Virus record (IMG/VR): IMGVR_UViG_3300017992_000618
Source of the DNA: an uncultured virus (IMG/VR IMGVR_UViG_3300017992_000618)
Taxonomy: Duplodnaviria; Heunggongvirae; Uroviricota; Caudoviricetes
Length of the DNA: 64,000 bases
Reading direction: 5' to 3' (one strand)
The translations under genes and the position numbers were made by a program. Positions 32,106-57,494 of this stretch are shown here, in pieces. Position 1 is the stretch's first letter; each line of letters begins with the position of its first letter. The notes below the pieces were generated by a model that worked only from the letters and a program-made list of their open reading frames with translations, was not told the DNA's origin and ran no database searches.

Positions 32106-32867
32106 CTACATCATATAATGACCCGCGTAATCATCTTCTTGCGCATCAGTTTTATCATCTTCCGGTTCATCATCAACTGGAAGTTCAGGCAACTCCGGTA
32201 CATATGTCCCACCCATGATCTCATCTATCTTTGCCTGCATCGTTTCCAATGCCTCTTTGGTCGGTTTTTTACCAGAGCTCCTCTTTAATACTGTCATTTC
32301 AGGCTCTTTCTTTTGATAGTTATAACCAGTGTTATGGTTATATCCCTGATTATAACCACTAGTATGATTGTACCCACATGCTGCTGAAGTATTCCGCCGA
32401 TTTGTTCTCGTAGAGGTGTCTTTCTTCTTCTCCTCTGTTGAAACTTTATCAGACGGTATATCTGTATAAGCAGCCACGTCTATAATATCCTCATCATTTT
32501 TATACATCCTCTCATCTTCTCTCATTTCCTCGAGAAGCTTGATGAGTTTCTTGTGAGCTTTTTCCTGATCATCATCTTCTTTTGTGAAGAAGATAAGCTC
32601 TTTGACATCATTCTTTAAGGCTTCGATATGCATAACATCATAGTATTTGGTATTGTAGAGGGAAGTTACCGGCTGAGCCTTGCTTGTGGATGTAGCACCG
32701 GCTTTCTCATAATACAGGATATAGAATTCATCCGCCTCTTTCTTCGGATCTTTCTCTTCCTTAGTAGTTATACCGCTGAAGAGACCACGCACTACGTCAA
32801 ATTTACTGTCAGTGGTGCTGATCAATTCCAGATATACATATTTTAATGCGTGCTGTCCTTTAGACAT
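32106..32867 (-). CDS. Hypothetical acidic protein
   Basis: 253-aa ORF with short GYN(H/Q) repeats. Confidence 0.65.
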   Translation of the reverse strand: MSKGQHALKYVYLELISTTDSKFDVVRGLFSGITTKEEKDPKKEADEFYILYYEKAGATSTSKAQPVTSLYNTKYYDVMHIEALKNDVKELIFFTKEDDDQEKAHKKLIKLLEEMREDERMYKNDEDIIDVAAYTDIPSDKVSTEEKKKDTSTRTNRRNTSAACGYNHTSGYNQGYNHNTGYNYQKKEPEMTVLKRSSGKKPTKEALETMQAKIDEIMGGTYVPELPELPVDDEPEDDKTDAQEDDYAGHYMM

Positions 32868-33288
32868 GGCTCAATTCCCTCCCCATTGTTATTACGTAGT
32901 GATCTCTAGACCACTTACGTCCTATTGCGTTGAATCCCAAACTCATAGCCATACGTAGGCTTGGTGTATTATCATCCCTTATAGTCATGTATACATGTTG
33001 AGTATTACACATATTAACCGCCAGATTTACCAGCCGCTTAGCTATACCACAGCACCGCCGCTCAGGTATAACACACACATGCATTATTTTACTCAAATTT
33101 TTAAACTCTTTGAGAAAACCAGCACAGCCAACTACTCTGGAGCCCTCTATCTCTACCACATAGCTGGCTGCACTGTTTTTAATGGCGAAAGGTGTGTGTT
33201 TAACATACCATCTGTTATACTGGTTTACCAGAGATGCTATTTGAACAGACATCTCATCAGTAGATAATGATGTGTAAAATTCACCCAT
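32860..33288 (-). CDS. GNAT acetyltransferase
   Basis: VVGC, VCV.PE.R..GIAKRLV, DN.PSL.....LGF. Confidence 0.85.
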   Translation of the reverse strand: MGEFYTSLSTDEMSVQIASLVNQYNRWYVKHTPFAIKNSAASYVVEIEGSRVVGCAGFLKEFKNLSKIMHVCVIPERRCCGIAKRLVNLAVNMCNTQHVYMTIRDDNTPSLRMAMSLGFNAIGRKWSRDHYVITMGRELSHV

Positions 33289-33293
33289 AATAC

Positions 33294-34391
33294 TTACTTC
33301 CCACCAAACATCCTGTTAAATACTTTATCCAGGACTTCAGCTTCATCATCAGATTCCACACTATCGATCATTTCAGCCATCAGATGTCCCTTGCTCTTGA
33401 GTCTCTCAACAGCGGAGCCCATCCTCTTGGCCTTCAGTGCAGATGTTGCTTTGGTTTCTTTCTTGGCGACTGGTTTCGCCGCAGCCTTTTTCGGCACCAG
33501 AAGCTCATCGAGTTTCTCATCAAAAGCTTTCACATACGCCTTGAATGGTGTTTCTTCCAGGCCGGGGCCAGTATTGACCTCAATAATCCATGGATGGTTG
33601 TCCATATCGAGAACACAATCAACAGCACCGAACTGAAGATTGAGTGCGGCCACTGCTTTGATAGCTTCTTCCTCCAGAGCCTTATTGATCTTGGTAATCC
33701 TGGAGAATTTCCACCCTATGTTGTTCCGCAGTGTCGCATCGGCACCGTCTAACTGTTGCGCCTGTCTTTCCAACATAAAAGTTGCGGTGCCTTCGTCGAA
33801 GGCTTCGCCCTTCTTCTCGGCCAAGCGTTTCATCTTGTCCAGATTCTTGCGTACATAGGCAGCCCTGACCTCTTCTTGGGTCCTTTCTACCTTTTTTACT
33901 GCATGAATGACCTTGTCCCCGAATACATGGAGTCTGAATTCCGTTTTGATTTCGACCAATTCCTGCAGATATCCCGCACCCTGCTCCGCAGCCTTGTCGA
34001 CACTCATTTTTGTCGGGCATAACCAAAATCCTTTCCCACCTTGGTGATATTTCTTCCGAGCGATGGCAGGTAAGGTGATGTTGCCGGCATCCAGCGCCGT
34101 TTTTGTGCTACCGATAGGTACGTATCTCGGTACCTTTACGCCGGCGTCCTGCATTACATCCAGGGCAGCCAGTTTATTTCTGTTTGTCCTGATATTGTCA
34201 GGATGATTCAAGACCGGAATCTTACCGAGGTTAACCGAATCTTTCGTTTTGGCACCCCATCCGATGACCGCAGAGGCTGATTTGTTTTTAGGTTTAACCC
34301 TCCCACACTTCACACCTAGTGCTTCTGCCAACGCCTGCCCTGTTACATCTGTCGCTCCACTAAACCAAATATAAGCATTATCTTTACTCAT
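33294..34391 (-). CDS. ATP-grasp ligase (phiEco32-type) with a helical insertion
   Basis: VIGWG, LNHP..I...RNKL, HQGGKGF, EFRLHVF, FGAVD...WIIEVNTGPGL. Confidence 0.9.
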   Translation of the reverse strand: MSKDNAYIWFSGATDVTGQALAEALGVKCGRVKPKNKSASAVIGWGAKTKDSVNLGKIPVLNHPDNIRTNRNKLAALDVMQDAGVKVPRYVPIGSTKTALDAGNITLPAIARKKYHQGGKGFWLCPTKMSVDKAAEQGAGYLQELVEIKTEFRLHVFGDKVIHAVKKVERTQEEVRAAYVRKNLDKMKRLAEKKGEAFDEGTATFMLERQAQQLDGADATLRNNIGWKFSRITKINKALEEEAIKAVAALNLQFGAVDCVLDMDNHPWIIEVNTGPGLEETPFKAYVKAFDEKLDELLVPKKAAAKPVAKKETKATSALKAKRMGSAVERLKSKGHLMAEMIDSVESDDEAEVLDKVFNRMFGGK

Positions 34392-34428
34392 GTCAAGACC
34401 TCCATCTAATTTTTTTTAATTTATTTAG

Positions 34429-34450
34429 AAACATTTCGACCACGATCAGA
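34429..34450 (-). repeat. Repeated 22-bp intergenic motif, copy 1 (copy 2 at 50241-50262)
   Basis: aaacatttcgaccacgatcaga vs aaacctttcgaccatgatcaga (20/22 identical); on the - strand each copy is followed by ATTAAAAAAA. Confidence 0.6.
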
Positions 34451-35750
34451 CGTCGACCAGAAATTTCTTCTTCTTCAACCAGTTGTTCTGGATTTGTTTA
34501 TCGAAGCTAGAAAAGTGTTTGGGTGGCAGTGCCAGGAGCTCATACAGAGCATCAATATATTTATGATACTTCTTGTATGTGGTCAGTTGTTTCATCCCGC
34601 TATACCACGTCCTGAGATATTTGGTGCTAATATCAGTGCATTTAGATGCATTGAGGACACGAGTCATTTCCTTAGAGCTTTTAACACAACCCAAGTCCCT
34701 GGTGAGTGGGATGTCTCCCCAGCTATTAAAATTGCTGTGAAACAGGCTGGATTGTCTATAATCACTTGGAATAATATATTTTTTGGCATACTTATGTTCA
34801 GCGACCAGTTTAAATACTTCATTTATAATCGCTTTTGCTGTACCGAGCACGCATTTGGCTAATGATGGGTGGCTTAACCACATACCACTTAAAGTCCTAT
34901 GTTCTAACCGTCCATTACACACTCTCCACTCACCAAAGTACCCATATTTACCCATGGTACATTTAGTACGTCTTGCCGAACCAAGTTCAGCACCATCTAG
35001 ACGAATCATCGGCAATGCCAACAACTCATCTATGATCTTGTTCAATATTTTAAAGAAGTATTCACGATCATTACCTGGCAACTTAGCAATTCTGACAGGA
35101 TTACCAATATGGATATGGCCACCGATTGGGAAATCTCTACGGTGATCTTTGAAATAACAACCACACATCCATTTGAATTGTTTGATACCTTTGGTAAGAT
35201 CCTTATCTCTGAACACCCGTTCGATGTTTTTAACTAGTTGATCTGGTGTAATGGCAGGATCAGGTCTTACTTCCGCCATAGCCCCATCATATCCAAGAGG
35301 GCCGTAATGTGGTAATACACCATCTCTATTGGCATAGAATGGATTGTCGCCATCAAACAAAAGGAATTCTGGATCAGCTCCAATTATTGTATCATTGATA
35401 TTATCTGCCACCCAAATATTCTCACATGAATTACTGTTGTCTCCAACAATCAGGTTGTAAGTTTTAGATGTGACAAAACCAACGCGTCTCAACTCATTTG
35501 GAGTCATGCCCTTCTCTCGAAGAACACGAATGTCCGCTGAGAACGCTTTGAATATTGTCAAGAGCTTGGTCTTGTGGAGTCTATCCTCAACTTTACCTGA
35601 ATCAGGATATACCTCCACCTTGTTGTCCTTGAACCCCATATGGTCTCTTGCCGCCTGGCTCATTCTAACAAGGCTGTTTTCATTTCGTCCCTTTTTCTTG
35701 TTAGTGTCCATTTTCTCAGATCTAACCAGAATAAGACTTTCTTTTCCCAT
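34446..35750 (-). CDS. phiEco32-like COOH-NH2 ligase type 2 with an extra N-terminal domain
   Basis: IGADPEF, GYDG..AEVRPDP, GGHIHIG, RR.....YG..GEWR, EHRTLS..WL..P. Confidence 0.9.
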   Translation of the reverse strand: MGKESLILVRSEKMDTNKKKGRNENSLVRMSQAARDHMGFKDNKVEVYPDSGKVEDRLHKTKLLTIFKAFSADIRVLREKGMTPNELRRVGFVTSKTYNLIVGDNSNSCENIWVADNINDTIIGADPEFLLFDGDNPFYANRDGVLPHYGPLGYDGAMAEVRPDPAITPDQLVKNIERVFRDKDLTKGIKQFKWMCGCYFKDHRRDFPIGGHIHIGNPVRIAKLPGNDREYFFKILNKIIDELLALPMIRLDGAELGSARRTKCTMGKYGYFGEWRVCNGRLEHRTLSGMWLSHPSLAKCVLGTAKAIINEVFKLVAEHKYAKKYIIPSDYRQSSLFHSNFNSWGDIPLTRDLGCVKSSKEMTRVLNASKCTDISTKYLRTWYSGMKQLTTYKKYHKYIDALYELLALPPKHFSSFDKQIQNNWLKKKKFLVDV

Positions 35751-35753
35751 GAT

Positions 35754-37745
35754 TTATCTACCCTCCTTGGATTGAACTATACTAACTAAGTTTCTCATTA
35801 CTTTATTATCCCTGAGATCACCTGGTTTGAATATACTTAGTAGCATGTGGTCTGTTATTTCATCACCTCTGTTAAGTGATTTGGATACAAATCTTTCCAG
35901 GTCTCCATATCCTACACCACTGGCTTCACTGAGGAGTTTTACCAGATGTTTGAGCTGTCTAATTTTACCCTCAGCCTCCAGTTTTTTGTTGCGTAAACGA
36001 CCGAACATGCTTCGAGCACTATTTGTAGAGTAGTCCATGATAGTACCTTCGGTATCACCCCTCTCTATCATACGGGCGGTATAACCTTTATACCATGCTT
36101 CACTAGCTATTTTCTTCTGTACCCTATTTAATAAAGCTGGAAGAGGCATGTCTTTCAACGCGGTACTGTCAGGAATTTCCAAAAAGTTGCAAATATCAAT
36201 ATTGTTGCTGAATCTTTCTATGTTATTTGCAAAACCATTAGATCTTTCGAGTATTTTTGGATCAGGAGTCTTCATATTCACCTCTGTTTTTCCGAGAGAG
36301 GTTCCTTCACCTGCAATGGATCTCAAATGGCTTGTGACTTCTTTATCATGAGTTTCAATTTCACTATCCTCTGTCTTGACATTGATTTGATTTATCTTTG
36401 CAGTGGATGTAGGTTCTTTGTTGATGGTATCCTCAGTACCATCCTTCAAACCGAACTTGCTGGTAGTCTTTTCCTCTGTGAAAGTTTTGTTCGGCTCTTC
36501 GCCTTCTTTGATAACCTTATCACCGACAGAAGCTTTCACTTCACCTGTTTCTGTGTTTAACTCAACTGATTCAATTTTTTTTGCCTCTTTTACCTCAGCT
36601 TCGGTTGGCACATCGTAAACAGATTTTGTACTATTCCAAACACGGCCTTTATTAGATTGGGCCTTGTTGTCCTGCGACCCTCCCACGGTTGATGATTGAT
36701 CTGACGCTTTGGTACTGCTTGCATCCTTCGTTGACTGTTTGTTGTCCGATGACGCAGGGGCTTGGCTTTTTTTTCCAGTAGCAGCGGTCGATGCTGCACC
36801 TGTATTGGTGTTCTTAGCCGATGCAGTATTGTTGTTGTATGTTTTCTTAACGACATTGTCCCACACTTTACCTGTACGAGGAACCTTTTCAGTTTCATAC
36901 AGATCGGCGATGTCCGTATCCTTGGTGATTTCTTTCCGCAGGTCAAACAAATAGATACTATCATCCGCCATGAATTTAATATCAACATCATCTTTCTTCA
37001 AAGGCTTGAAGATTTTTGAGCCGACATACAGATGAGCCATTTTGTTGTAGTTATATATGGCTTTCTTTATAAATGTTTGGTCGGACGCAAGAATGGCGAG
37101 CTTTAATGGCCGGATGATTGCCATCTCTAGAGGCCTGCCATCTCGAAATGCCGCCATTTGATATGGATTGTTGCCGCTGAATGTTAGACAGCAATAAGTA
37201 CCATGCAGTCGTTTACATGTCTCCAAGAGCACTTCCTTGGAGTATGGCTCTGTACCATTTTTGGTCAGATGATGAATCAGCCTGAAGATTGCCTCACTGT
37301 CTACCTTTCCATCCCTTTTACAGTCCAATTTTTTGAATATCTTTTCATGGTTGGTCAGTGTACCATTGTGAATACCCACGATATCCCCAACCTTGATGGG
37401 ATGATTGTTAGCATTGTCGTCGGTGTTACCTACAGACGATTTCCTACAGTGGCCAACGAACATCCTGGCAGGATGTTTCTTTCGGCGCCAGATTTTGAGA
37501 AAGCCTTCGAAGTCCTTCTCAGTGTCGCCGAACCGAGCGATGAATTCCTGTGCAGGAATGCCCATCTTTTGAAGCATATAGTCGCAGTTGTCAAACAATG
37601 CTGCTACACCAGTAGCATCCTTACCTCTGCTTTGAGTCTGCTCCAACAACTCACTGCCCAGATATATCATAGATTCCTGTCGCAGTTTTTCTTCTTCCTT
37701 GGTCGCCGCATTATCAAATGCAAGAATTCCGACTACTCCACACAT
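35754..37745 (-). CDS. Class II (Ntn) glutamine amidotransferase with a long low-complexity C-terminal extension
   Basis: MCG N-terminus, RGKDATG, GHCR.SS.G...N.NNHPI, HNGTL.N, VDSEAI. Confidence 0.9.
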   Translation of the reverse strand: MCGVVGILAFDNAATKEEEKLRQESMIYLGSELLEQTQSRGKDATGVAALFDNCDYMLQKMGIPAQEFIARFGDTEKDFEGFLKIWRRKKHPARMFVGHCRKSSVGNTDDNANNHPIKVGDIVGIHNGTLTNHEKIFKKLDCKRDGKVDSEAIFRLIHHLTKNGTEPYSKEVLLETCKRLHGTYCCLTFSGNNPYQMAAFRDGRPLEMAIIRPLKLAILASDQTFIKKAIYNYNKMAHLYVGSKIFKPLKKDDVDIKFMADDSIYLFDLRKEITKDTDIADLYETEKVPRTGKVWDNVVKKTYNNNTASAKNTNTGAASTAATGKKSQAPASSDNKQSTKDASSTKASDQSSTVGGSQDNKAQSNKGRVWNSTKSVYDVPTEAEVKEAKKIESVELNTETGEVKASVGDKVIKEGEEPNKTFTEEKTTSKFGLKDGTEDTINKEPTSTAKINQINVKTEDSEIETHDKEVTSHLRSIAGEGTSLGKTEVNMKTPDPKILERSNGFANNIERFSNNIDICNFLEIPDSTALKDMPLPALLNRVQKKIASEAWYKGYTARMIERGDTEGTIMDYSTNSARSMFGRLRNKKLEAEGKIRQLKHLVKLLSEASGVGYGDLERFVSKSLNRGDEITDHMLLSIFKPGDLRDNKVMRNLVSIVQSKEGR

Positions 37746-37757
37746 ATTAACCTCCCT

Positions 37758-38753
37758 TTACGATGTACTATAATAAGTTGCCGAAGATGTTTCTCCTGAA
37801 ACATAATTATATGTAGCAGTATTGGTGTAACCACCGTAGTTTGTTTTCTTTTTACTGGCTTTGATATATCTCTCAACGTTGAGTTGCCCCTCACCCTCAG
37901 ATTTCGCTTTGCCTTTTTTACCTCTGTTATATTCTTCATACTTCTTGGCGTAGTCCACCAGCTGCTTCATGGTTTCATGAGCCCCTCCACCTAACATTAT
38001 AACATCGTTAGCTTTACAACCATCTACCTTGAATACATTCTCCTGGTAATTGGTCATTACTATAGCTGTTTCAAATGCTGATAGATATCGGTGCCCCGCA
38101 TGTATATCATTATGACGCAGGGTTATTAACAACCCCATACCATCTACCTTCTTAGGATTCCATATTGGCACACAATAATTTATATCTATGAAGGTTGCGT
38201 ACAGACTGCATGGGCTCATTTTAAAAAACTCAGAATCAGTATGATTGGTATTAGACCCAAAGACACTGTGATATTTATACATAGACACGATGTTTTTGGT
38301 GCTATCGATGAATCGTCTAGCAGTGGTGAGGTCTGACATCTTTAATGTTATAGCGCCCCATTGATGGACATAATTTCTTATCCAATCCATGTCTATAAGA
38401 TCGAAAGTGGGCACAGGCTTGATGTAATGTAGGTTGTATACTCTCTTACCATTCACAACCTTTAACTGTTTCACATCGATACCAGCTGTGGTATATATTT
38501 GATTACCTCTTCTAGCTGGAAAGATTGCATGTACTGCTACCTCATTAGGCATGTTGTCTAAGTCCATACCTAGTTTAAACGCGTCATGTTTTATGAGTGA
38601 CCCCCTGCCATTTAATGCGTTATCGAGATCCGTTGCACTTACGAATCCTTTGGAACAGAGTGGGAACATACCAGTGTGGTCATGGCCCACTCTAACACAC
38701 CGCATCTCTCTTAGTGTGCTATCCACATTTAATATGTGTCCTTGATGAATCAT
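37758..38753 (-). CDS. Hypothetical protein within the ligase cluster
   Basis: AAGGAG RBS, 331 aa, no recognised motif. Confidence 0.7.
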   Translation of the reverse strand: MIHQGHILNVDSTLREMRCVRVGHDHTGMFPLCSKGFVSATDLDNALNGRGSLIKHDAFKLGMDLDNMPNEVAVHAIFPARRGNQIYTTAGIDVKQLKVVNGKRVYNLHYIKPVPTFDLIDMDWIRNYVHQWGAITLKMSDLTTARRFIDSTKNIVSMYKYHSVFGSNTNHTDSEFFKMSPCSLYATFIDINYCVPIWNPKKVDGMGLLITLRHNDIHAGHRYLSAFETAIVMTNYQENVFKVDGCKANDVIMLGGGAHETMKQLVDYAKKYEEYNRGKKGKAKSEGEGQLNVERYIKASKKKTNYGGYTNTATYNYVSGETSSATYYSTS

Positions 38754-38767
38754 TTCTACTTACTCCT

Positions 38768-39577
38768 TTAACAAAAATGATAGCAACCGCCATTTTTACT
38801 ATATGTATCTGGCAAAGCGAATTTAATCTTATCTGAAGTGAGTAAATTCACACCTAGAGCTTGGTTTCTGACCAACTCTATGGATTTGAACACCACAGGG
38901 TTGAGGCATTTGATTGAATGCTCTACAAAATGTCCCGAAGTTGAGTATGCAATCACTCCAATGTCGGGGTAGTGGAGTACAGATAGTGGCGAAGACCCTT
39001 TCAACATCCAAAACATCCATGGGTTTTCTACGTCTATCATACCACACGCAAAACTACCAGATAATTTTTCTGCTGTAGCACGTATTGCTTCAGGCATAGA
39101 CTCTTTCATTCTGTCAAGTCTAGACTCTATCATACGAAAGATTATTTCACTGTCTACCTGAGCTTTACGTTTAATATTATACCCTTTAAACAATACATCA
39201 TCATTGCCTATCATACCATTATGGGTACCGATGACTCTATCACATACTATAGGGTGGTTGTTATCATTGTTTGTATGACTGCCTTTTGTTTGAAATCGGC
39301 AATGGCCTATAATTTGGGTGGTAGGTCTGTTCTCTCTATCACCTGTGAATTTGACATGTTTATCAAACGACTCATTGAACTCCTTAGTCCTAATGAACTG
39401 AGACGCTCGAATGTTGTGTTTCACTACGGTAACCTCATCTTCATTGGCTATCGCAATACCAGTGGCATGAGTACCTCTGGGCTCACAACTTAAAAGAAGT
39501 TTCTTTACTACCTCTTTAATATCTTTAGGGTTGAACATACTTCCTTTTTGGAAGCCTAATCCGAAAATAGCGCACAT
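38768..39577 (-). CDS. Class II (Ntn) glutamine amidotransferase
   Basis: MCAIFG, RGTHATG, GHCR.QT.G...N.NNHPI, HNGMI.N, VDSEII. Confidence 0.9.
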   Translation of the reverse strand: MCAIFGLGFQKGSMFNPKDIKEVVKKLLLSCEPRGTHATGIAIANEDEVTVVKHNIRASQFIRTKEFNESFDKHVKFTGDRENRPTTQIIGHCRFQTKGSHTNNDNNHPIVCDRVIGTHNGMIGNDDVLFKGYNIKRKAQVDSEIIFRMIESRLDRMKESMPEAIRATAEKLSGSFACGMIDVENPWMFWMLKGSSPLSVLHYPDIGVIAYSTSGHFVEHSIKCLNPVVFKSIELVRNQALGVNLLTSDKIKFALPDTYSKNGGCYHFC

Positions 39578-39578
39578 A

Positions 39579-39767: not shown

Positions 39768-39777
39768 AGTTTCTCCT

Positions 39778-41466
39778 TTAGAGAAGCACTGGAGCACCTA
39801 TTGGCTCAGACCATACCAGTTCACCATCGTTTTGTTTCATCTCCACAAAATACCTAACCTTATTCATGATTTCATCATCAGTACTGTGGTTGGTGTCAAC
39901 ATCTGGATGTTCTTTAATAACACCTGTGACTTCATGCACCCATTCGTGGACGTCTTTGCACTCATCAATGATTCTCAAATCCATGATTTCACTGAGAGTG
40001 TTCTCAAACTTACCCTCTTCGGTCATGATAATGGCCAAATCATCTTCGATTTGTTCCCAGGTAGCACCATCACATCTGCGTAAAGCGATAGGTTTCTCTG
40101 CTATTTTCTCCAGAACCTGGTATGCTGGACCAATACGTATCAGGTTGTGCTTCAATTGACGGACGAGATCCATGGATTCACGAATCAAATCTTCATAATA
40201 TTTACGCAGATTGCGGGTGTCTCCGAATCTATCGCCGTCCTGATAACTTTTCATGTTATTCAGCAATGCGCTCTTGATCATCTCCGCTCTTTCCATCCAC
40301 TCATTGCTTTCAATCTCCACAACACCGTATCTGGAAATCTCTACTGCTTTGATCATCAAGGCGTAGTTCATACAAGCTAATGCTGCTACTGCGCTTGGCG
40401 AATTCATGCCGTCTGCTGCTCTCATTTCCACATGAAGTCTGGTCACATCACCAGAGCTCTTGGAGAACTCAGTATAGTTGTAGTTAACCCAACCATATTT
40501 GTTTCCGCCTGCATGATGAGATACTTCCTGTTTAACCTGACGCATGCTATTGAGAATGGCAGATATTGGTAGTACAGATACTCTGAACTTCTCCCATCTG
40601 GTTAACCGTTCTGGTTCATCCAATGCCATCACCATCCAAGTCATAGCGTTTTGATATCTTCTGACCAGCTGATGAAAATTGGCAAGAATGATGGACGGCA
40701 TGTCCTTCTCCAGCTCGTTAATTTTATTCGGTATGCTGGAACCACTACCATCAGGTACCACTTTACCGTAGTAGCTTGCCAGCAGATGCATATGAATACT
40801 ACATCTTTCATTGAGATAGGCACCATGTTTTACTGAGGTATCGATGATTTTCTTAGCCATCTTATAGAACTCCCAGTAATCCACACGTCTTCCTATTGTA
40901 ATAACCTCTGCCCCCTTCTTACCGAGTAGGGATCCATCAGTTGTGATGCTGTGTACACCACTCTCATTGATGGTACCGTATGTGTTGTTCGGCCGGAAGT
41001 TTTTCTTCATGGACTCCCTGATATGCTCAGGACTTTTCTTCGGATCATATCGGAACTCACACCCCTTACAATCCACTGTAAAATCTGAACATATGAAACA
41101 TGCGCTCACAAAATTGGGGCAATTTATACCATGACACATGAGTTTGTATTGATCGCACTCTTCACAATTATCATCCTTACATTTCTTGCTATTGTTTGCA
41201 CATCGAGCACGCAATCTTACGCTCTCACATTCTTCTACCAATGCACACTGCGCCCAGCAGTCATGTTCATTCATTCTGGCACACGGGCAGGAATTACTCT
41301 CGCCCTTGCAGTTGCCATTCTTTTTATTAGGCAGATTGAACTCAAACTCCAACCCGACCTTAAGAATTTTATGCAGATTACTTTTCCAGTAAGCTACATC
41401 TTTTGCCGACAATGCTGGATAGATGTCATTTTGAATGAACGTCCATTTGTCTTGCGTGTTTCTCAT
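39778..41466 (-). CDS. Putative amidoligase (glutamine synthetase/GCS fold, Amidoligase_2-like) with a 16-Cys insertion
   Basis: VGLEFEF, DGSL...GAEV, CSIHMH, KY..VN, EMR..DG. Confidence 0.82.
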   Translation of the reverse strand: MRNTQDKWTFIQNDIYPALSAKDVAYWKSNLHKILKVGLEFEFNLPNKKNGNCKGESNSCPCARMNEHDCWAQCALVEECESVRLRARCANNSKKCKDDNCEECDQYKLMCHGINCPNFVSACFICSDFTVDCKGCEFRYDPKKSPEHIRESMKKNFRPNNTYGTINESGVHSITTDGSLLGKKGAEVITIGRRVDYWEFYKMAKKIIDTSVKHGAYLNERCSIHMHLLASYYGKVVPDGSGSSIPNKINELEKDMPSIILANFHQLVRRYQNAMTWMVMALDEPERLTRWEKFRVSVLPISAILNSMRQVKQEVSHHAGGNKYGWVNYNYTEFSKSSGDVTRLHVEMRAADGMNSPSAVAALACMNYALMIKAVEISRYGVVEIESNEWMERAEMIKSALLNNMKSYQDGDRFGDTRNLRKYYEDLIRESMDLVRQLKHNLIRIGPAYQVLEKIAEKPIALRRCDGATWEQIEDDLAIIMTEEGKFENTLSEIMDLRIIDECKDVHEWVHEVTGVIKEHPDVDTNHSTDDEIMNKVRYFVEMKQNDGELVWSEPIGAPVLL

Positions 41467-42631
41467 TGTAGAACCTCCCCCAATTTTCTTCTATATTATT
41501 TCCGAACTGAACTCCGTTAAATAAACAATTAAAGAATGCATCCACAGATGGTTTTCTCGCCTTGTACCCAACCATCTTCTGAATGTCTGTATATATATCA
41601 TTTAATTTACTGAATGCATACGTTACTTCAGGAACACATATCATTGAAAACACTTTCTGATTACTAGGCATATTTGGATACAGCTCATGTATATGCTCTG
41701 TACATTGCATTTCCTGCATGTTAGCAAAGTTATCAGTGCAAGCATTGATTCTACTCACTATGTCTTCTATTACTACTGCTCCCAATGCTAGTATACCATT
41801 AGTTAATATAGGATGTCTTAACAACGAGCCACCTGGAACTCTATATTCTAGTGTTCTATTATCAATCCTAAACTCACCTGGTTTACCATACTTAATATAT
41901 GTTGATGTCCGACGTCTTGTATCTGTATTACCTTCTGGAATAATAGCTGGTACACCCACATAATAATCCATTGCCTTTACTACTTGACGTATCACTGTCT
42001 TCACCGTTCTCTGGAATCCCAACATCTGATACGGCACTCCATAATGAAGATGAAATCCTGCAGTAGCCCCTTGATAATTAGATGCACCATATAACATTAA
42101 GTGTGGGCTCACTTGTGGTTTCAAGTTCAACATCATTCTAGCTTTGGATATGAGATTCATGATGTTGTCCGTTACAATGGTTTCATCGGTGCTAGGAAGT
42201 GGTCTGAATTCCAATAGCATTCCATCATTTCCAACATCACCACTCTTTCCAAAATAAGATCTGGCACTAACTAATCCACCGTTTCTACAATCTATAATGA
42301 ACAACTCTGGATCGCAGCCAAGAGTAATATTCTTAACAGTTTCTACATCTTTGGCTCTAAGTGAATTTCCTTCTAAAACCTCGAATACTTCAGCAGTGAC
42401 GTATGCTGATGTTGGATCTTCTGCAACATCTTCTTTGAACGCCGGTGCTATCTGAAGATTAAGAGGTATACCGTCTTTTGTATTAAGATTAACGAAATCG
42501 TGATTACTTAAATTAAATTCTTGTCTGCAATGTAGTGGTAATCTTATTATGCGATTCTCGAACCCTCTGTTCCAGTCGCATTCTTTCGTCATTGTATTTG
42601 AAATCTTTATATCTATTTTCATTAAACTCAC
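41426..42631 (-). CDS. phiEco32-like COOH-NH2 ligase type 2 with an extra N-terminal domain
   Basis: LGCDPEL, GNDG..LEFRP.P, GFHLHYG, RR.....YGKPGEFR, EYRVPG. Confidence 0.88.
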   Translation of the reverse strand: MSLMKIDIKISNTMTKECDWNRGFENRIIRLPLHCRQEFNLSNHDFVNLNTKDGIPLNLQIAPAFKEDVAEDPTSAYVTAEVFEVLEGNSLRAKDVETVKNITLGCDPELFIIDCRNGGLVSARSYFGKSGDVGNDGMLLEFRPLPSTDETIVTDNIMNLISKARMMLNLKPQVSPHLMLYGASNYQGATAGFHLHYGVPYQMLGFQRTVKTVIRQVVKAMDYYVGVPAIIPEGNTDTRRRTSTYIKYGKPGEFRIDNRTLEYRVPGGSLLRHPILTNGILALGAVVIEDIVSRINACTDNFANMQEMQCTEHIHELYPNMPSNQKVFSMICVPEVTYAFSKLNDIYTDIQKMVGYKARKPSVDAFFNCLFNGVQFGNNIEENWGRFYNEKHARQMDVHSK

Positions 42632-42636
42632 TCTCC

Positions 42637-44578: not shown

Positions 44579-44579
44579 A

Positions 44580-45403: not shown

Positions 45404-45415
45404 TTTACACCTCTC

Positions 45416-49265: not shown

Positions 49266-49298
49266 ACATGCTCCTTTTCTGATGGTAGTGGTTAATAG

Positions 49299-50204: not shown

Positions 50205-50240
50205 TTTTCCTCCGAACAAAATTTATTTTTTTAATCCTTA

Positions 50241-50262
50241 AAACCTTTCGACCATGATCAGA
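50241..50262 (-). repeat. Repeated 22-bp intergenic motif, copy 2
   Basis: See 34429-34450. Confidence 0.6.
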
Positions 50263-51437: not shown

Positions 51438-51440
51438 GTT

Positions 51441-51953: not shown

Positions 51954-52423
51954 AATAACTCCGTGTCTCCTATGTTCCTAAGAACAGCTACAGTAGCAGT
52001 AGTATATATATTAGACATACCTGGTTCAGCACCTTCGTTAAGTAAATCATTTACAATATCAGACAACGATCTTATCTTGAATTCTTTTGAAGCTACTGAA
52101 GTAAATTTGAACAATTTGAGTGGTTTGACTGAATACACATGTACATGTAATTTTTGAATATCAGCTATTACAGTACATATTTTTGTTAATGAATAACTTT
52201 TATCAAGAGGGCTCATTTTAAATACATGAGCTATTTGTTGCCTGGCAGTCAATTGTGGGTCAGTGTGTGCGTTAGGCAACCATGCATTCAGAGTCAATTC
52301 CCACCGCTCTTTGACAGGATCTTTTATCAGGAGAAACCTATTGACTGGTAGTGACACCATCAATTGGAGATAATGTTCTGTGAACCCAGATCTATGCCTG
52401 TACAGTGCCATTTTGTTCTCCAT
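51899..52423 (-). CDS. Hypothetical protein
   Basis: ORF packing. Confidence 0.55.
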   Translation of the reverse strand: MENKMALYRHRSGFTEHYLQLMVSLPVNRFLLIKDPVKERWELTLNAWLPNAHTDPQLTARQQIAHVFKMSPLDKSYSLTKICTVIADIQKLHVHVYSVKPLKLFKFTSVASKEFKIRSLSDIVNDLLNEGAEPGMSNIYTTATVAVLRNIGDTELLWDRRLENSWKKKSTLLV

Positions 52424-53093
52424 ATCTGAATTCTTTTACAAATTCATCGGCTCCCATTTCAAGGAACGTTGTCAGGCCGGCATTGAAGAAGATGTAGCCG
52501 GTAGAATCCTCAGACATCATTTCAGGGTGATATTGGACGGCGAATATGTTGTACTTAGGAATCACCATCGCCTCTATCTCCTTACCATCATAATTGATGT
52601 GATGATCTTGGAATCCTATATATTTCTTCGATAGCTGGACAGTAGACCATCCAATGATAACAGCATCATCAGGTGGAATGACAGCCTGATGGTGCAGGCT
52701 GTTAACTAATATAGGCGCCTCTTGGATAGTGGTGGTCATAAGATGTGACTTACCTACTGAATGACCATCCAAATGATGAATGAGCTTGCCGCCAGCCATC
52801 ACATTTAAGAATTGAATCCCACGACATATACCTGCCATAGCGATGTTATTTGCATAGGCTAGCTTGAAAACATTCTGCTCAACCTTATCACGCAGTTCAT
52901 TGTTATGGCAGTAGCCCTTGGGTGAAGCATCATCATACAATTCAGGTGATACATCCTCCCCACCAGTGAACAGAACACATCTGAAATCTGTTGGTTTGTG
53001 TAGAAATTCCGTCATGTCTGTAACTACAGGGCCGATGTCCTTTACAGCACTGGCATATGATTCACCATTGAGTACAAGTATTTTATCCGACAT
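52392..53093 (-). CDS. Class I glutamine amidotransferase-like peptidase C26 (PuuD-like gamma-glutamyl hydrolase)
   Basis: FTGGEDVSP.LY, RD..E, GICRGIQ.LNV..GG.L, VNSLHHQ, VQYHPE. Confidence 0.92.
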   Translation of the reverse strand: MSDKILVLNGESYASAVKDIGPVVTDMTEFLHKPTDFRCVLFTGGEDVSPELYDDASPKGYCHNNELRDKVEQNVFKLAYANNIAMAGICRGIQFLNVMAGGKLIHHLDGHSVGKSHLMTTTIQEAPILVNSLHHQAVIPPDDAVIIGWSTVQLSKKYIGFQDHHINYDGKEIEAMVIPKYNIFAVQYHPEMMSEDSTGYIFFNAGLTTFLEMGADEFVKEFRYGEQNGTVQA

Positions 53094-53367
53094 TCTCTTC
53101 ACCTCCGTCCGGCAGTTCTGGCACATCATCCTTCTTTTTATCTTTTTCAGGATCAACCACAACTATCTCGGCATATCTGTCATTGATAAGCTGTACGATA
53201 TCCATGCCTTCGAATCTTATTTCGTAGACAGGGAATTGTCCTTGATGTCCGTTGTTATAACAATTCCTGCGATACGTAATTGACTTGACAGGACTTCCAC
53301 CCTCAGATATGGGTGCTCCAGCCTCATACCTTGCACCTGTATTTGTAACTACTGCCAGAATTTTCAT
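53083..53367 (-). CDS. Hypothetical protein
   Basis: AAGGAGG RBS. Confidence 0.6.
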   Translation of the reverse strand: MKILAVVTNTGARYEAGAPISEGGSPVKSITYRRNCYNNGHQGQFPVYEIRFEGMDIVQLINDRYAEIVVVDPEKDKKKDDVPELPDGGEENVG

Positions 53368-53376
53368 CTCGCCTCC

Positions 53377-53760
53377 TTATATTTCCCATACTCCGTTTTT
53401 AACTTCCTTGAGCCCCTCTGTTGGTTGATTGAAGAAATATGCAAAGACCTCAACCTCACCATCCTCAGTCTCCGCCTTTACCACCTTACGTTTATAAAGA
53501 CTACGGTCTGGGTTGTGTCTGACGTACCCTTCAATAGAATCCATGGCACTGATGACATCATCCATGTGTTTATATTCATGGACTTCACCATGTACAACAC
53601 CATCGCCTTCCACCAGGCCAGGATAAAAACCATTTACATCCATCAATTTACCAACCATGGTGGCTTTCATGGTGCTTACACGGACTTTATCAAATCCTTG
53701 TGCGAAATGACCGCCCTCTTTTAGTGTTCCATATACAAACACTTTGTTAATCTTTGCCAT
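53377..53760 (-). CDS. Gamma-glutamylcyclotransferase (AIG2-like)
   Basis: VFVYGTLK.G, YPGL, V.GEV, D..EG, Y.R. Confidence 0.92.
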   Translation of the reverse strand: MAKINKVFVYGTLKEGGHFAQGFDKVRVSTMKATMVGKLMDVNGFYPGLVEGDGVVHGEVHEYKHMDDVISAMDSIEGYVRHNPDRSLYKRKVVKAETEDGEVEVFAYFFNQPTEGLKEVKNGVWEI

Positions 53761-54747
53761 TTACATTTCCCTCCACTTTCTAGGTTTTGCTCCATACATC
53801 TCACGGAGACGTTCTTTCTTAGCTTCTGAACCATCCTCATCATCGTCGGATATCATATATTTTCTACGAAACTCCTCGGAAGGAATAACATCAGAAGATA
53901 TTCTACCATAGTTTGCACCCTTCACCCACTCACCTCTTTTCTCTCCTGGAACATAATGTTCAGGCACAGGATCAGTTGGCTCCGGCCACGTTTGTACTGG
54001 GGTTGCGGCCACTACCCTTTCTTCTGCTGTGCTTAGATCACCAGTGATCTTGATCTTACCTTTGGACTTGGCAGAAGATGCCGACTTGGCTTTTTTTAGC
54101 CGAGCACTTTTAGGTTTCTTTTTACGCTCCAACCTCTTCGCCTCTTTGAGATCAAGCTTGTTTACCCAACCTCTTTTCTCAAGTTTAGCCGCTCTTTGTA
54201 GTAATGATTCAAGATGTGGATGATCCATATCCTTATTAAGTCTAAGGATACCTTTCAAACAATCATCATGTGCGCCTTCCACTACCTCATAGACTCTGCC
54301 GTTGATGTCTATAATAACACCACAGCATATTATGTCTACATTTCGCGGAACGTGAAGGGTTGCCTCTTTTCTAGAGGATTTATGATCAGACGAACAGATT
54401 AGTTGAGCACAAGCGCCATTGATGCCTTCAAATTCCACAACATTATTGATAGGCATCTTTCTCTTTCCATACCTATCAGTTTTTTGAGGAACACCTGGCA
54501 TCTTTTGTACTTGTTTCCATCTGGCGCTGCGGATAAAGGATTGATGTATATTTTCGAACTCTCTAGGCGCCGCTGATATGTCAAGGTCTCCGACCAATGG
54601 TTTGCCAGCAAGAGCATCTCTGACAGCACCGCCATATATGACAGCATTGTCAGTTAATAATTCGAATGCAGCATCAAACCGTTCAATTATAATTTCGCTG
54701 ACCCAGTCAACGTTTAAAATCTCCTTTTTATATCCTACTTTAAACAT
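53761..54747 (-). CDS. Pol-beta-superfamily nucleotidyltransferase (CCA/PAP head-like domain)
   Basis: IYGGAVRDAL.G....DLDI; R..KL.KRGW. Confidence 0.7.
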   Translation of the reverse strand: MFKVGYKKEILNVDWVSEIIIERFDAAFELLTDNAVIYGGAVRDALAGKPLVGDLDISAAPREFENIHQSFIRSARWKQVQKMPGVPQKTDRYGKRKMPINNVVEFEGINGACAQLICSSDHKSSRKEATLHVPRNVDIICCGVIIDINGRVYEVVEGAHDDCLKGILRLNKDMDHPHLESLLQRAAKLEKRGWVNKLDLKEAKRLERKKKPKSARLKKAKSASSAKSKGKIKITGDLSTAEERVVAATPVQTWPEPTDPVPEHYVPGEKRGEWVKGANYGRISSDVIPSEEFRRKYMISDDDEDGSEAKKERLREMYGAKPRKWREM

Positions 54748-54992
54748 TGTTTGACCTTATCGTTTATAGTTATGGATGTTATTTCCTCTTCAGGAAAAGT
54801 TTGTTTTGCTACTTCACTGGCAGCCAACATTACCCATTCAAGATAAGAGCGTTTCGTCTTATCATTGTAGTGCTTTTTATATGATTTAATGAATTTCGAC
54901 AGCTGCCTGATTGAAAAAGACATAGACGAGGTGCTGCCTTTATGAAGCGCTACCTTGACCTGCCACAGCCTTCTGCTCGTGTTCGTTGTCAT
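54735..54992 (-). CDS. Hypothetical protein
   Basis: Fills the gap between flanking genes. Confidence 0.45.
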   Translation of the reverse strand: MTTNTSRRLWQVKVALHKGSTSSMSFSIRQLSKFIKSYKKHYNDKTKRSYLEWVMLAASEVAKQTFPEEEITSITINDKVKQCLK

Positions 54993-55740
54993 CTTTAGCC
55001 CTCTTTGGTGAGAAAAAGCCTCTCAACAGAGCTGTATCGTTCAGCTCTTCAGGATGCCATTGAACCGCAAGAATCCTGCTCGGCCAGGTTTTGATCGCAA
55101 ATGCCTCAATCATTACCTCTTTGTCTTTCTTGTCGAACCCACGCTCCGTCCACGCCAAGACATCAAGATCTTTCTTCAAGACACTTGGTGCCTTTCCTTG
55201 TGTACTCAAGGCAAGACACTGGTGATGCATGCTGTTTACTGGGATTCTTCGTATCTTCTTTCCAGATCTTCCGTACAAACCCATCACATTCGCGTCAACG
55301 AAGTGACTTGGAATATCACGAACAAGGCTCAATCCATTTGTCTGACTGTGGGATGATACATTCTGATAGAAAGTAAACCAGTCATTAAATGCATCCTCTT
55401 TCATGGACATTAGGAATTCACGAATAATTAGTTGGAAACCACGGCAGATACCGAAAACTGGTTTCTTCATGGCTACGAATTCGTGTAGCAAGGAACGCTC
55501 GAACTCATCTTTATCAGGATCGGTTGAATAAGACGCGATGTTGTCTTCACCATAATATATGGGATCGATATCAATTCCGCCAGGCAGTAATAGGCCATCG
55601 CAGAATTTTGATGCATCTACCACGTTTTCTGGTGTGGTAATGATTGGCATATAACCGGCCTCGATAACATATTTGGCATAAGCCTGATTGACGAAGTACT
55701 GCGTTTTACTTTTACTCGCGGGCAAACAAATCTTTTTCAT
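54940..55740 (-). CDS. Class I glutamine amidotransferase-like peptidase C26
   Basis: DGLLLPGGIDIDP..YG, D.FE, PVFGICRGFQ, VNSMHHQ, AVQWHPE. Confidence 0.92.
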   Translation of the reverse strand: MKKICLPASKSKTQYFVNQAYAKYVIEAGYMPIITTPENVVDASKFCDGLLLPGGIDIDPIYYGEDNIASYSTDPDKDEFERSLLHEFVAMKKPVFGICRGFQLIIREFLMSMKEDAFNDWFTFYQNVSSHSQTNGLSLVRDIPSHFVDANVMGLYGRSGKKIRRIPVNSMHHQCLALSTQGKAPSVLKKDLDVLAWTERGFDKKDKEVMIEAFAIKTWPSRILAVQWHPEELNDTALLRGFFSPKRAKDDNEHEQKAVAGQGSAS

Positions 55741-56660
55741 GGTTTAGTCTCCTCCAATTCCCATTCTTTTGTTAAGTGCATGTCATCGTTCTTGATCTTT
55801 GCCAGTGCCTCATTGAAGTAATGGACAGAATCCTCACTTAAGTGGGGCATCACATGTTTTTCCATGACCTTTGTAGCTTCATCAGACAGACCATTGTTAA
55901 TGATATTCTGAATCTCATTCTCGCCGACAGCCCCAATCAATTCTTCATCTTTACCATCCCGAACAACTTTCAAAGCATCTTTAGTTAAACAGTACATTAA
56001 CATGACTGTCACGGGACTTTTTAGCCAATAGTTGCTAAGAACACGGTACTCAACACCATATTCCTTAGGTCGATGTGAACCAGCTTTGCCATATAGTTTT
56101 CTTCTGGCAATAGCTTCTTCAGAATTGTCCAAAATAGTGGACAAGAGACCATGCATACAATCCATAGTCTTCACCATTGCTACCTTACCTGGAAAATCCA
56201 GAAGAAATTCATTGCCAGAACCCTCTTCACATCCAACATGGATATGAGCACCACAACTTCTGAAACATTTATCATCTATACATGGTGCCTCATTTTCCTG
56301 CATTTTCCATGCATCATAGTCAGGGTCACAGCCGAAACGTTTGGCTTCAGGGTGATCCAACTCTGCGGGATCGAACTGAGCTGATGGTAGTGCAGCCAGC
56401 TTGTGTCCCTTAGGAATAGCTCCCAATACATCCCTGAATGTTTGTTGTACCTTGCCGACGAAGTCATCTCGCCCTACAGCCGGATCTGTAGCAAATTCCA
56501 CAGCGACATTGTCGCGTTGGATGTTGCCACCGTTTGGTAACGGTGCCGGCTCTTCCTTTGTCCCATTGATATGTGGTATAGCAGACCTCAACTGGCCGGT
56601 TTCATTCTCTGCCAGGAAGAATTCAGGATCTGTACCAATGCTGAAAACTTTCTTTGCCAT
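55737..56660 (-). CDS. phiEco32-like COOH-NH2 ligase type 2
   Basis: IGTDPEFF, SAI..I.G.K..P, DNVAVEF, FGCDPD, RSCGAHIHVG, RRKLYGKAG..R.K.YGVEYRVLSNYW. Confidence 0.93.
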   Translation of the reverse strand: MAKKVFSIGTDPEFFLAENETGQLRSAIPHINGTKEEPAPLPNGGNIQRDNVAVEFATDPAVGRDDFVGKVQQTFRDVLGAIPKGHKLAALPSAQFDPAELDHPEAKRFGCDPDYDAWKMQENEAPCIDDKCFRSCGAHIHVGCEEGSGNEFLLDFPGKVAMVKTMDCMHGLLSTILDNSEEAIARRKLYGKAGSHRPKEYGVEYRVLSNYWLKSPVTVMLMYCLTKDALKVVRDGKDEELIGAVGENEIQNIINNGLSDEATKVMEKHVMPHLSEDSVHYFNEALAKIKNDDMHLTKEWELEETKP

Positions 56661-56672
56661 CTCTCTTCCTCC

Positions 56673-57494
56673 TCACTTCTTTCTAGGTAAATGCTCTTTG
56701 CAGAGCTTGATGAAATTTTTCTTCAAACGTTTATACTGAAAATCACTGTTATTTCCATAAGTGGAGCAGAAGCTTAGCATTCCGCCATACACACCAATGT
56801 TTGATGATCCAGCTTTCGGTGCCCACAATTTCTTATGGTCTTCTTTACCAAAGAGTTCTTTATGGTACTTCAATAAGATATATATCTCATTTCTGAAACT
56901 GCGAAGATATCTGGTGATATCACCGTGCCCATCTTTACCTTGGTGTTCAGAGACAAGAGCTTTGAAATCCCGCTCTACTGAATCGATACCACCATCTACA
57001 TCAAATGGACCATATTCTGCACCAAGACGAAGAATAAAAGTAAATGTTGATATCAATTGAGGTGACATTAACCAACCACCAGGGCCAGTTAACAACCACA
57101 CATTGTCGTGTATCTCATGTTTAACGGTGGTGATTTTACTCTGATCCCACCCGGCGATGTCTTCATATACATTCATCACAGCCTTCGCATTAAAAAGCTT
57201 ATCTCTGAATTCATTGAAGTCCTTGGGGTCTCTAGCAATAAGGATGCGGACTTTTTCCTTATCGAAATTGTATCCTTCTGAAGGCTTGAAATCGTTGTGA
57301 CGTTTATCATTCATAGCCGCATGTGCTTGTGCTGTGACCTGTTCTCGACAATATACAAATGGAGTCAACTGAGTTCTGACACCCTCAACTGGTGGTGACA
57401 TCCATGCAAACTGTGGTTTGTTGTACCCATAAGGATTACCTTCATCCGCTGGCCACTTTTTAACACGTATCAGTTTCTTTTTAGCTTTCGCCAT
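56673..57494 (-). CDS. Unknown protein, paralog family A
   Basis: PQFA...CRE, MN.YE...GW, WL.SPQLIS.FTFILRLG. Confidence 0.7.
   Translation of the reverse strand: MAKAKKKLIRVKKWPADEGNPYGYNKPQFAWMSPPVEGVRTQLTPFVYCREQVTAQAHAAMNDKRHNDFKPSEGYNFDKEKVRILIARDPKDFNEFRDKLFNAKAVMNVYEDIAGWDQSKITTVKHEIHDNVWLLTGPGGWLMSPQLISTFTFILRLGAEYGPFDVDGGIDSVERDFKALVSEHQGKDGHGDITRYLRSFRNEIYILLKYHKELFGKEDHKKLWAPKAGSSNIGVYGGMLSFCSTYGNNSDFQYKRLKKNFIKLCKEHLPRKK

Follow-up and report, generated by a model that had tools for sequence, protein, structure and literature searches.

The phage amidoligase cassette of the phiEco32 type (Iyer et al. 2009, as relayed in section 16 of PMC5498523 and in passages of PMC10580990) is described there from phages phiEco32, LUZ24, RIO-1 and CW02 as a 'peptidoglycan modification' set that combines a PF14395 ligase, an amidoligase, a class-II GATase, a RimK-type ATP-grasp enzyme and a gamma-glutamylcyclotransferase; C26 is also present in the cassettes of CW02 and phiM6. 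The cassette is placed among replication and transcription genes, and no product is reported for it in the literature searched. It is widespread, since one of the ligases described below (lig2C) has tblastn matches in 317 phage records.

The window studied here is a stretch of 64,000 nucleotides from an uncultured Caudoviricetes virus (IMGVR_UViG_3300017992_000618). Family searches recover in it the enzyme families of the phiEco32-type cassette, as anticipated in the original prediction. All 12 enzymes named there are real ORFs encoded on the minus strand, like every gene located below, and 11 score above the Pfam gathering score, the exception being the amidoligase at 39778. Their shared orientation carries little meaning, the minus strand encoding almost every long ORF between 23 kb and the end of the contig. 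PF14395 (cut-off 25 bits) has matches in 0/14 control genomes; its three copies here are therefore not due to chance. Instead of forming a single contiguous run, the genes are split into two blocks, with helicase, SSB-like and RNA polymerase (RNAP) genes between them, plus a satellite ATP-grasp gene. The blocks are complementary, block 1 holding the amidoligase, Ntn and ATP-grasp genes and block 2 the canonical ligase, C26 and cyclotransferase genes; combined, they make up the enzyme set of the cultured-phage cassettes. The locus differs from these cassettes by its three PF14395 genes of two lineages, two of them with CDC48-type barrels, by the Cys-rich insert of its amidoligase, by a second Ntn gene that is decaying in part of the clade, and by the addition of a GNAT, a nucleotidyltransferase and three U3 genes. 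The barrels, the nucleotidyltransferase and the U3 paralogues were missing from the initial component list. Conversely, the 170-220 aa gene that separates ligase and amidoligase in 13/13 cultured loci (Kuravirus, LUZ24, Zobellviridae) has no counterpart: its profile finds no match in any locus of the clade or in the 10 window families compared with it.

The enzyme genes are conserved in gene order across a clade of uncultured jumbo phages, and neighbourhood comparison thus bears out the expected co-occurrence. Block 1 keeps the same order in 9/9 related records (8 distinct) and in two more distant loci; the nine were chosen by their amidoligase, so that this conservation counts for the other genes only. 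Among the 19 block-2 loci with at least 7 kb of cover, lig2C and C26b are found in 19 and C26a and the cyclotransferase in 18. Identity of the relatives to the window is 44-59% for the amidoligase, 46-59% for lig2C and 45-54% for RNAP. Conservation of the cluster in the clade is comparable to that of RNA polymerase, an argument for the cluster being important to the phage. Catalytic residues are retained across relatives in 11 of the 12 named enzymes, the check on the GNAT being of conservation alone. Searches by tblastn with the proteins at 39778 and 34446 and the RNAP gave no match among 50,697 phage records and so turned up no cultured relative, and the only named matches bearing on the host are mutually inconsistent MAG bins. 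The 'moraphage' lineage was ruled out, being reported without RNA polymerase genes in passages of PMC12619734. Amber recoding was likewise rejected: TAG is the stop codon of 10/50 named genes, and table 11 gives long frames.

Block 1 is located between helicase and RuvB genes. The protein of 32106..32867, for which family searches including Pfam returned no family, is fixed between the GNAT gene and RuvB and is in place in 9/9 related records (6 by BLASTP, 3 by position). It shares a Pro-x-Leu-Pro tail with SSB and the 53083 protein, whose conservation is too low for use. The GNAT acetyltransferase (32860..33288; PF00583, 44.6 bits) is present in 9/9 records. RimK-type ATP-grasp ligase 1 (33294..34391; PF08443, 30.4 bits; phrog_2599) has invariant D258/E271/N273 and bears a C-terminal acidic helical appendage also found in relatives. 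The satellite ATP-grasp 2 (25814..26572; PF02655 ATP-grasp_3, 28.6 bits, above cut-off) has invariant E218/N220 and is present in 7/9 related records. The COOH-NH2 ligases lig2A (34446..35750; PF14395, 79.8 bits), with D126/E128/E160/H212/H214/E283/R285 invariant, and lig2B (41426..42631; PF14395, 70.2 bits), with invariant catalytic motifs, each carry an N-terminal CDC48-type double-psi barrel, recognized by profile in lig2A (E 2e-11) and, for lig2B, as CDC48_N in 7/19 aligned N-domains.

NtnA (35754..37745; PF13522 GATase_6, 39.8 bits) is an intact class-II amidotransferase-type hydrolase in which C2, R40, H126-N127-G128 and D149 are invariant in 9/9 sequences. NtnB (38768..39577; PF13522 GATase_6, 38.4 bits) has the class-II fold with its nucleophile intact in the window. 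Its N-terminal Cys is lost in G002/G003, G008 and G009, 3 of the 8 distinct relatives, and the gene keeps its position there, at variance with the proposal that both Ntn genes are ammonia donors. Stand-alone Ntn enzymes can act as gamma-glutamyl hydrolases (EgtC) as well as ammonia donors, which also tells against separate writer and eraser blocks. Between the two Ntn genes lies a variable protein without family (37758..38753), missing at that place in G006.

The 39778..41466 product, whose gene is directly overlapped by lig2B, has no match in Pfam, PHROG or NCBIfam. E40/E42/E187/H225/H227/E347/R349 and 11 cysteines of an insert at about residues 53-136 are invariant in 120 sequences. The best solved matches of its AlphaFold model (pLDDT 85.7) are PafA, GshA, GS and YbdK, and its named viral Foldseek matches are mostly amidoligases. 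Reference amidoligases came from 12 cultured-phage and 5 IMG/VR cassettes, 2 of the 17 being excluded for lack of the motif; hhalign against the remaining 15 gave a probability of 87% (E 4.5e-6). Its identification as the second GS-fold amidoligase (PF12224 type) of the cassette is upheld by predicted fold and profile similarity. The amidoligase, U3 and nucleotidyltransferase profiles found no significant sequence match in the PDB.

Block 2 lies 1.7 kb downstream of a lytic transglycosylase gene, and an RNA-ligase-like gene is found at most 3 kb upstream of it in 15/25 loci. C26a, a class-I glutamine amidotransferase/gamma-glutamyl hydrolase (52392..53162; PF07722 Peptidase_C26, 72.9 bits), has invariant C113/H212/E214. 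The gamma-glutamyl(amine) cyclotransferase (GGCT; 53377..53760; PF06094 GGACT, 70.9 bits) has invariant YGTL and E77; its gene is absent from the usual slot in G007 and lies 10 kb away in G005. The putative minimal CCA/polyA-head-like nucleotidyltransferase (53761..54747), assigned by motif conservation and by phrog_1614 in 9/16 sequences, has G-G-A-x-R-D, D46/D48 and D130 invariant in 16 sequences. It occurs in 17/19 loci and was not found in G005, G008 and G009. C26b, a PuuD-like gamma-glutamyl hydrolase (54940..55740; PF07722, 105.2 bits), has invariant C99/H229/E231. The canonical-type phiEco32-like ligase lig2C (55737..56660; PF14395, 38.5 bits; phrog_3815, E 5e-60) has D11/E13/E55/H139/H141/E204/R206 invariant in 119 sequences. 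In a FastTree tree it groups with canonical phage ligases, apart from lig2A and lig2B. More generally, paralogue pairs are 22-27% identical by BLASTP and fall in separate old clades of this tree; they are, by sequence divergence, ancient, which does not support a local duplication of nearly every component.

These data bear on the reversible scheme of the original prediction, taken as a protein tagging in which a glutamyl or amide mark written by block 1 is later erased by block 2. C26 enzymes and GGCT can indeed strip gamma-glutamyl groups, and PafA/Dop-like folds are among the best structural matches. However, block 2 has an intact ligase, cultured cassettes interleave the same hydrolases with ligases in a single gene run, and the promoter/terminator scan is at chance (54 sites versus 51 expected), giving no separate promoter signal. 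The assignment of writers to one block and erasers to the other is weak, and we consider such a write-and-erase cycle very unlikely.

Directly upstream of lig2C are U3b (56673..57494) and U3c (57510..58298; likely start ATG 58298, 262 aa). With a third paralogue, U3a (23982..24812; BLASTP to the 56673 and 57510 products at E 5e-5 and 7e-6; 132 bits with the U3 HMM), they form a three-copy, unannotated family, nameless in Pfam, PHROG and NCBIfam. Its predicted fold is a reduced form of that of glutamine synthetase, and by profile it resembles COOH-NH2 ligases. In the AlphaFold model of U3c (pLDDT 95.9), GS/GCS/PafA/Dop proteins are 18 of the top 19 structural matches (best Z 6.4, rmsd 4.7, 179 aligned; Z-scores that the tool terms middling). 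For U3c against a PF14395-like subfamily the hhalign probability is 82% (E 1e-5), the U3 hhalign score is 45 versus at most 22 in 15 shuffles, and the U3 HMM matches a ligase at E 6e-7 among 4,399 ORFs. Predicted fold and sequence signal together place U3 in the GS/GCS superfamily fold, where profile evidence makes it a homologue of PF14395 ligases, not a member of their family. A near-invariant Cys-Arg-Asp/Glu is kept and the ligase metal- and ATP-site motifs are absent: in 153 sequences the columns aligned to the ligase DxE, second-shell Glu, HxH and ExR are hydrophobic or variable. Among 30 U3b orthologues C49 is invariant and R50/E111/W141/S149/R156 are at least 90% conserved. Dop exemplifies a ligase paralogue whose role has changed; it retains the metal-binding acids that U3 lacks. 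The pupylation enzymes PafA/Dop share the GS/GCS fold and are the top or near-top structural match of both 39778 and U3c; identity is about 7-10%, and no Pup-like tag or proteasome genes were seen in the blocks. Lengsin, a catalytically dead glutamine-synthetase paralogue, offers another GS fold without catalysis (rank 18 for U3c, Z 4.0). It is however a eukaryotic lens protein of full GS architecture, while U3, a reduced domain of 260 aa, is nearer to PF14395-type ligases in sequence.

At E 0.001 or better, U3 counts 2,463 representative proteins. The family is also found in the cassettes of other phages, and up to four copies occur per locus. In G005 and G006 the gene directly after the second ATP-grasp gene is a U3, and one U3 gene of 526-528 aa replaces the U3b/U3c pair in G008 and G009. 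Cultured cassettes have in the same position, upstream of the ligase, one or two Cys-Phe-Gly proteins of 270-400 aa. U3 may be related to these: besides the shared position, Foldseek gave weak rows (E 0.1-0.2) paired to the genes by organism and length alone. HMM searches were negative, hhalign probability was 0.05-0.09%, and both gene kinds co-occur in L178. In the ESM Atlas, U3b and U3c matched only unnamed clusters or structures with TM <0.35, except for one YdfE-family row at 0.88. A three-chain complex prediction of lig2C, U3c and U3b (score 0.01, mark 0.32) speaks neither for nor against binding. It is a speculative and rather improbable idea that U3 proteins are new GS-fold cysteine enzymes, whose C47-R48-D/E49 site with E116, S154, R161 and D190 would take a ligase-activated gamma-glutamyl or peptidyl group as a thioester and pass it to a target differing per paralogue, an E1/E2-like phage relay built of glutamine-synthetase parts. 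U3 is a candidate missing subunit, and reconstitution from the annotated enzymes alone might fail.

Motifs are intact in four GS-fold ligases and two ATP-grasp ligases, as well as in the hydrolases NtnA, C26a, C26b and GGCT. Ligases and hydrolases of these classes operate in one forward direction in the pairs EgtA/EgtC, PuuA/PuuD and BtrJ/BtrG, where gamma-glutamylation is transient. The same class pairings are all found here; the EgtC and PuuD NCBIfam models match weakly, all far under equivalog cut-offs, and none of the substrate-specific tailoring enzymes of these pathways is present. We tentatively favour the hypothesis that the two blocks are a conserved unit for one forward pathway making a glutamate-derived amide or short peptide and linking it, inside the infected cell, to an acceptor protein. 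The ligases would activate glutamate-type carboxylates with ATP and couple them to amines; the hydrolases could then supply ammonia or remove a temporary gamma-glutamyl group. The lig2A/lig2B barrels, U3 and the dead NtnB of some relatives would bind or scaffold substrates, and the GNAT may cap the free amine. Even phages of 45-50 kb keep the two enzyme classes, ligases and hydrolases, together, a retention that would fit obligatory steps better than erasing. The CDC48_N-type barrel is a protein-binding module in p97/VAT and is counted for protein attachment; nucleic acids and cofactors are further ligands of double-psi barrels. None of 20 cluster proteins has a 19-residue mean hydropathy >1.73 (two membrane controls, 2.3-2.7), also in favour of this pathway. 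Against this reading, none of the small block genes checked qualifies as acceptor or carrier, co-occurrence in the clade may reflect descent, the blocks could be two independent pathways given the separate ancestry of lig2C, and GGCT and the nucleotidyltransferase are missing or moved in some relatives.

The same forward chemistry might instead release a free small peptide or amide, such as a signal, a counter-defence molecule or an osmolyte-like compound, a possible though doubtful outcome. Small molecules are common products of ATP-grasp ligases and of GS-fold enzymes paired with C26/Ntn hydrolases. The best NCBIfam matches of C26a and C26b are small-molecule hydrolases, far under cut-off, and the small block genes checked include no conserved small protein ending in Glu/Gln as acceptor or carrier. 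Secondary-metabolite synthesis is also one suggestion for the cassette in passages of PMC10580990 and PMC11706807. Protein-binding-type barrels and up to four U3 per locus, however, exceed the needs of such a route, and neither block has a transporter.

A nucleic acid or nucleotide target, through GatCAB-like amidation of aminoacyl-tRNA or through use of the block-2 nucleotidyltransferase to form a gamma-glutamyl intermediate linked to a nucleotide, would agree with the frequency of the nucleotidyltransferase gene, with the nearby RNA-ligase-like gene, with the GS-related fold of GatB and with the helicase-RuvB setting of block 1. The best NCBIfam match of C26a, far under cut-off, is moreover gamma-glutamyl-CDP-amidate hydrolase (E 9e-8). 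We regard this target as highly improbable, as 0/13 cultured cassettes viewed have an annotated nucleotidyltransferase, three relatives lack it, and neither block matches base-modification enzyme families.

The 2009 proposal, that superinfection is blocked through modification of envelope precursors (peptidoglycan stem peptide or surface polymer), would be compatible with soluble enzymes, the precursors being cytoplasmic, and with the lytic transglycosylase gene next to block 2. To our knowledge, archaea of the Poseidoniales have no peptidoglycan. Yet an amidoligase and a GATase are also reported in a virus assigned to them, in passages of PMC11706807. Neither block matches a glycosyltransferase or Mur-ligase, and the literature searched holds no experiment on this hypothesis, published for the homologous cassette in the passages of PMC5498523 (section 16) and PMC10580990; we judge it unlikely. 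The Klebsiella CfmP paper was set aside as a precedent, its enzyme being TupA-like and without bearing here. Specific handles for mutants and pull-down baits are the barrels, the nucleotidyltransferase, the cysteine of U3 and NtnB, which is decaying in part of the clade.

The amide/peptide ligase genes of the window form a real, conserved and intact cassette, belonging to a system that is known but unsolved. All ORFs named in the original prediction are present, 11 of the 12 pass Pfam cut-offs and the family calls hold; their shared direction is uninformative because the entire arm lies on one strand. Block 1 has the order lig2B (41426), amidoligase (39778), NtnB (38768), a variable gene, NtnA (35754), lig2A (34446), ATP-grasp 1 (33294), GNAT (32860), ORF 32106 and RuvB, lig2 denoting PF14395 COOH-NH2 ligases and Ntn class-II amidotransferase-type proteins. 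This order is kept in 9/9 related IMG/VR records, all picked by the amidoligase, with NtnB of G008 assigned from position and the variable gene absent from G006. The records represent eight distinct ones because G002 and G003 score identically. The more distant loci L242 and L243 show the same block 1.

Block 2 (52392-58298) was surveyed by a metagenome scan with an alignment of U3c (ORF 57510), retaining 80 of 96 loci. Among these, L096 has the same sequence as the window, and G001 and G004 recur as copies. In 67 of the 80 the U3c-like ORF is complete and distinct, and 34 of these have at least 2 kb downstream; lig2C (55737) lies within 3 kb of this ORF in 32 of the 34, and two stand alone. 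The U3c-like genes of L145 and L151 have no ligase within 3-6 kb downstream, and the U3 family can therefore exist outside the cassette. Among 19 loci with at least 7 kb downstream (18 from the scan plus L245), lig2C and the gamma-glutamyl hydrolase-type C26b (54940) are present in all, C26a (52392) and the gamma-glutamylcyclotransferase GGCT (53377) in 18 and the nucleotidyltransferase (53761) in 17. The predicted co-occurrence across relatives is thus borne out. Displacement of GGCT in G005 and G007 counts against full fixation; no copy of the nucleotidyltransferase turned up in G005, G008 or G009, and none of ATP-grasp 2 (25814) in G008 or G009.

The expectation of intact catalytic residues in the paralogues stood for the three PF14395 ligases, NtnA, C26a, C26b, GGCT and both ATP-grasp enzymes, whose expected residues are intact in all aligned relatives. 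It failed for NtnB, whose N-terminal cysteine is present in the window and missing in G002/G003, G008 and G009. Retention of the gene without its nucleophile suggests that NtnB serves a non-catalytic role in part of the clade. ORF 39778 has no family-library match. Its profile matches cassette amidoligases (87%), its predicted fold resembles PafA, GshA and YbdK, and E40, E42, E187, H225, H227, E347 and R349 are kept in 120/120 aligned sequences. Residues 53-136 form a cysteine-rich insert inside the ligase fold, with 11 cysteines invariant in the same 120 sequences. This insert presumably binds metal and is a candidate zinc or iron-sulfur module.

Local duplication of nearly every component is not supported: paralogue pairs share 22-27% identity, the match between ATP-grasp 1 and ATP-grasp 2 is limited to 49 residues, and lig2A and lig2B group apart from lig2C. 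A FastTree tree built from 93 ligase cores, with long branches flagged and no bootstrap, places lig2A and lig2B in separate supported groups, each with partners from L242 and L243; lig2C belongs to a supported set of 46 rows containing all 12 cultured-phage rows. The N-terminal domain common to lig2A and lig2B matches double-psi beta-barrels (E 2e-11), with a CDC48_N match in 7 of the 19 members of its set. The separate groups and the shared barrel point to an expansion that combines one old duplication with genes from a second lineage. Blocks 1 and 2 are complementary; the gene set of cultured-phage cassettes is matched by both jointly and by neither alone.

U3c, U3b (56673) and U3a (23982) are mutual homologues without a name in Pfam, PHROG or NCBIfam. 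The family has 2,463 representatives, including two-domain forms of ~530 aa, and one to four copies per block-2 locus. In a structure search of 48,161 chains, the predicted U3c model (pLDDT 95.9) gives GS, GCS, PafA or Dop in 18 of the top 19 rows, with a best Z of only 6.4. Searched against 4,399 local ORFs, the U3 profile retrieves PF14395-type ligases (best E 6e-7, five at E ≤0.0022). hhalign matches it to a subfamily of these ligases (82%, score 45, against 22 or less in 15 shuffles) and more weakly to all small-phage ligases (33%) and lig2C (17%), with nothing against lig2A/B or the amidoligase. In the alignment, the stretch past the ligase second-shell glutamate pairs with a U3 Cys-Arg-Asp, and the ligase ExR strand and WLKSP pair with a U3 strand and WLKSP. 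Across 153 U3 sequences, hydrophobic or variable residues occupy the ligase DxE, Glu and ExR columns, and the residues kept are C47 (97%), R48 (92%), D/E49 (96%), E116 (93%), S154 (94%), R161 (97%), D190 (88%) and G237 (100%). Homologous to the ligases, U3 has either shed their chemistry or acquired a different one. Outside the clade it occurs at 6 of 51 distinct ligase loci, and also in L095, where it adjoins PF12224 amidoligases; its presence in amidoligase cassettes of other phages thus makes it a recurring cassette part. Position and weak Foldseek rows hint that U3 may be related to the unannotated genes that precede the ligase in phiEco32-/LUZ24-type phages; profile comparisons give no such sign, and L178 carries both kinds.

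The ligases would join glutamate-type carboxylates to amines at the expense of ATP, with the barrels and U3 choosing the substrate. The hydrolases may act in the forward direction, because for every class of ligase present a partner hydrolase, of a class also found here, is known to strip a temporary gamma-glutamyl group, and because small phages hold ligases and hydrolases in a single gene run. Reversible tagging is improbable; the proposed separation of writers in block 1 from erasers in block 2 does not hold, since block 2 carries lig2C with the expected ligase residues. A nucleic acid or nucleotide target, to which the nucleotidyltransferase of block 2 and, in 15 of 25 loci, an RNA-ligase-like gene no more than 3 kb upstream could point, also has little likelihood. 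We tentatively privilege a protein as acceptor. A free small molecule is a rather doubtful product and modification of the envelope an unlikely function; secondary metabolites or wall modification were proposed for the homologous cassette, as suggestions only, in PMC5498523, PMC10580990 and PMC11706807 (and, through these, Iyer et al. 2009). The text examined of PMC7824862, PMC2938197, PMC12632600 and PMC12619734 holds nothing on the amidoligase cassette, and the main texts of the open-access literature searched yielded neither an experimental study of it nor a description of U3. New handles on the system come from the U3 family, the lig2A/lig2B barrels and the nucleotidyltransferase.

The window makes up the first 64 kb of a virus record 73,810 bases long, from an uncultured jumbo-phage clade. 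The nine related records, retrieved with its amidoligase, span 45-269 kb (G004, 268,764 bases, is rated 100% complete) and encode RuvB, a sigma factor and an RNA polymerase of 1,100 aa that bears a DFDGD motif. In the window this single-chain polymerase, with joined beta- and beta-prime-like barrels, lies at 45864-49265 (-). In G004 (148970-171973) and G008 (171769-194190), a second polymerase motif occurs in a protein of 7,500 aa, which is a possible virion RNA polymerase. The polymerase, lig2A and the amidoligase have no match among cultured phages. Between the SSB and helicase genes, a small RAMA/DUF4357-like protein (44580-44999, -) is kept in 9/9 relatives; such domains bind modified DNA. 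Flanking the blocks on the (-) strand are genes for a CCA-adding enzyme with an HD domain (28567-30072), the RNA-ligase-like protein (58330-59541), which has a weak phrog_562 match and an apparently altered ligase lysine motif in the window, and a peptide deformylase (59541-60092). An NAD salvage set (-; window 24784-25539 and 63160-64000, contig 64361-67871) comprises NadD-like and PncB genes by Pfam and PncA-, NadR- and PnuC-like genes assigned by eye, and is partly common to G001-G003, G005 and G007. The left arm (+) encodes a caspase-domain protein (104-1117), a methyltransferase and restriction-like pair (2478-4289), an HNH/GmrSD-like gene (8126-10823) and, by Aragorn, a tmRNA (4296-4623). 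A tRNA with a CUA anticodon (Aragorn 'Pyl'; 6310-6382, +), found also in G001, G002 and G003, is possibly a suppressor or the sign of a host using pyrrolysine; despite it, TAG is the stop of 10 of 50 named genes.
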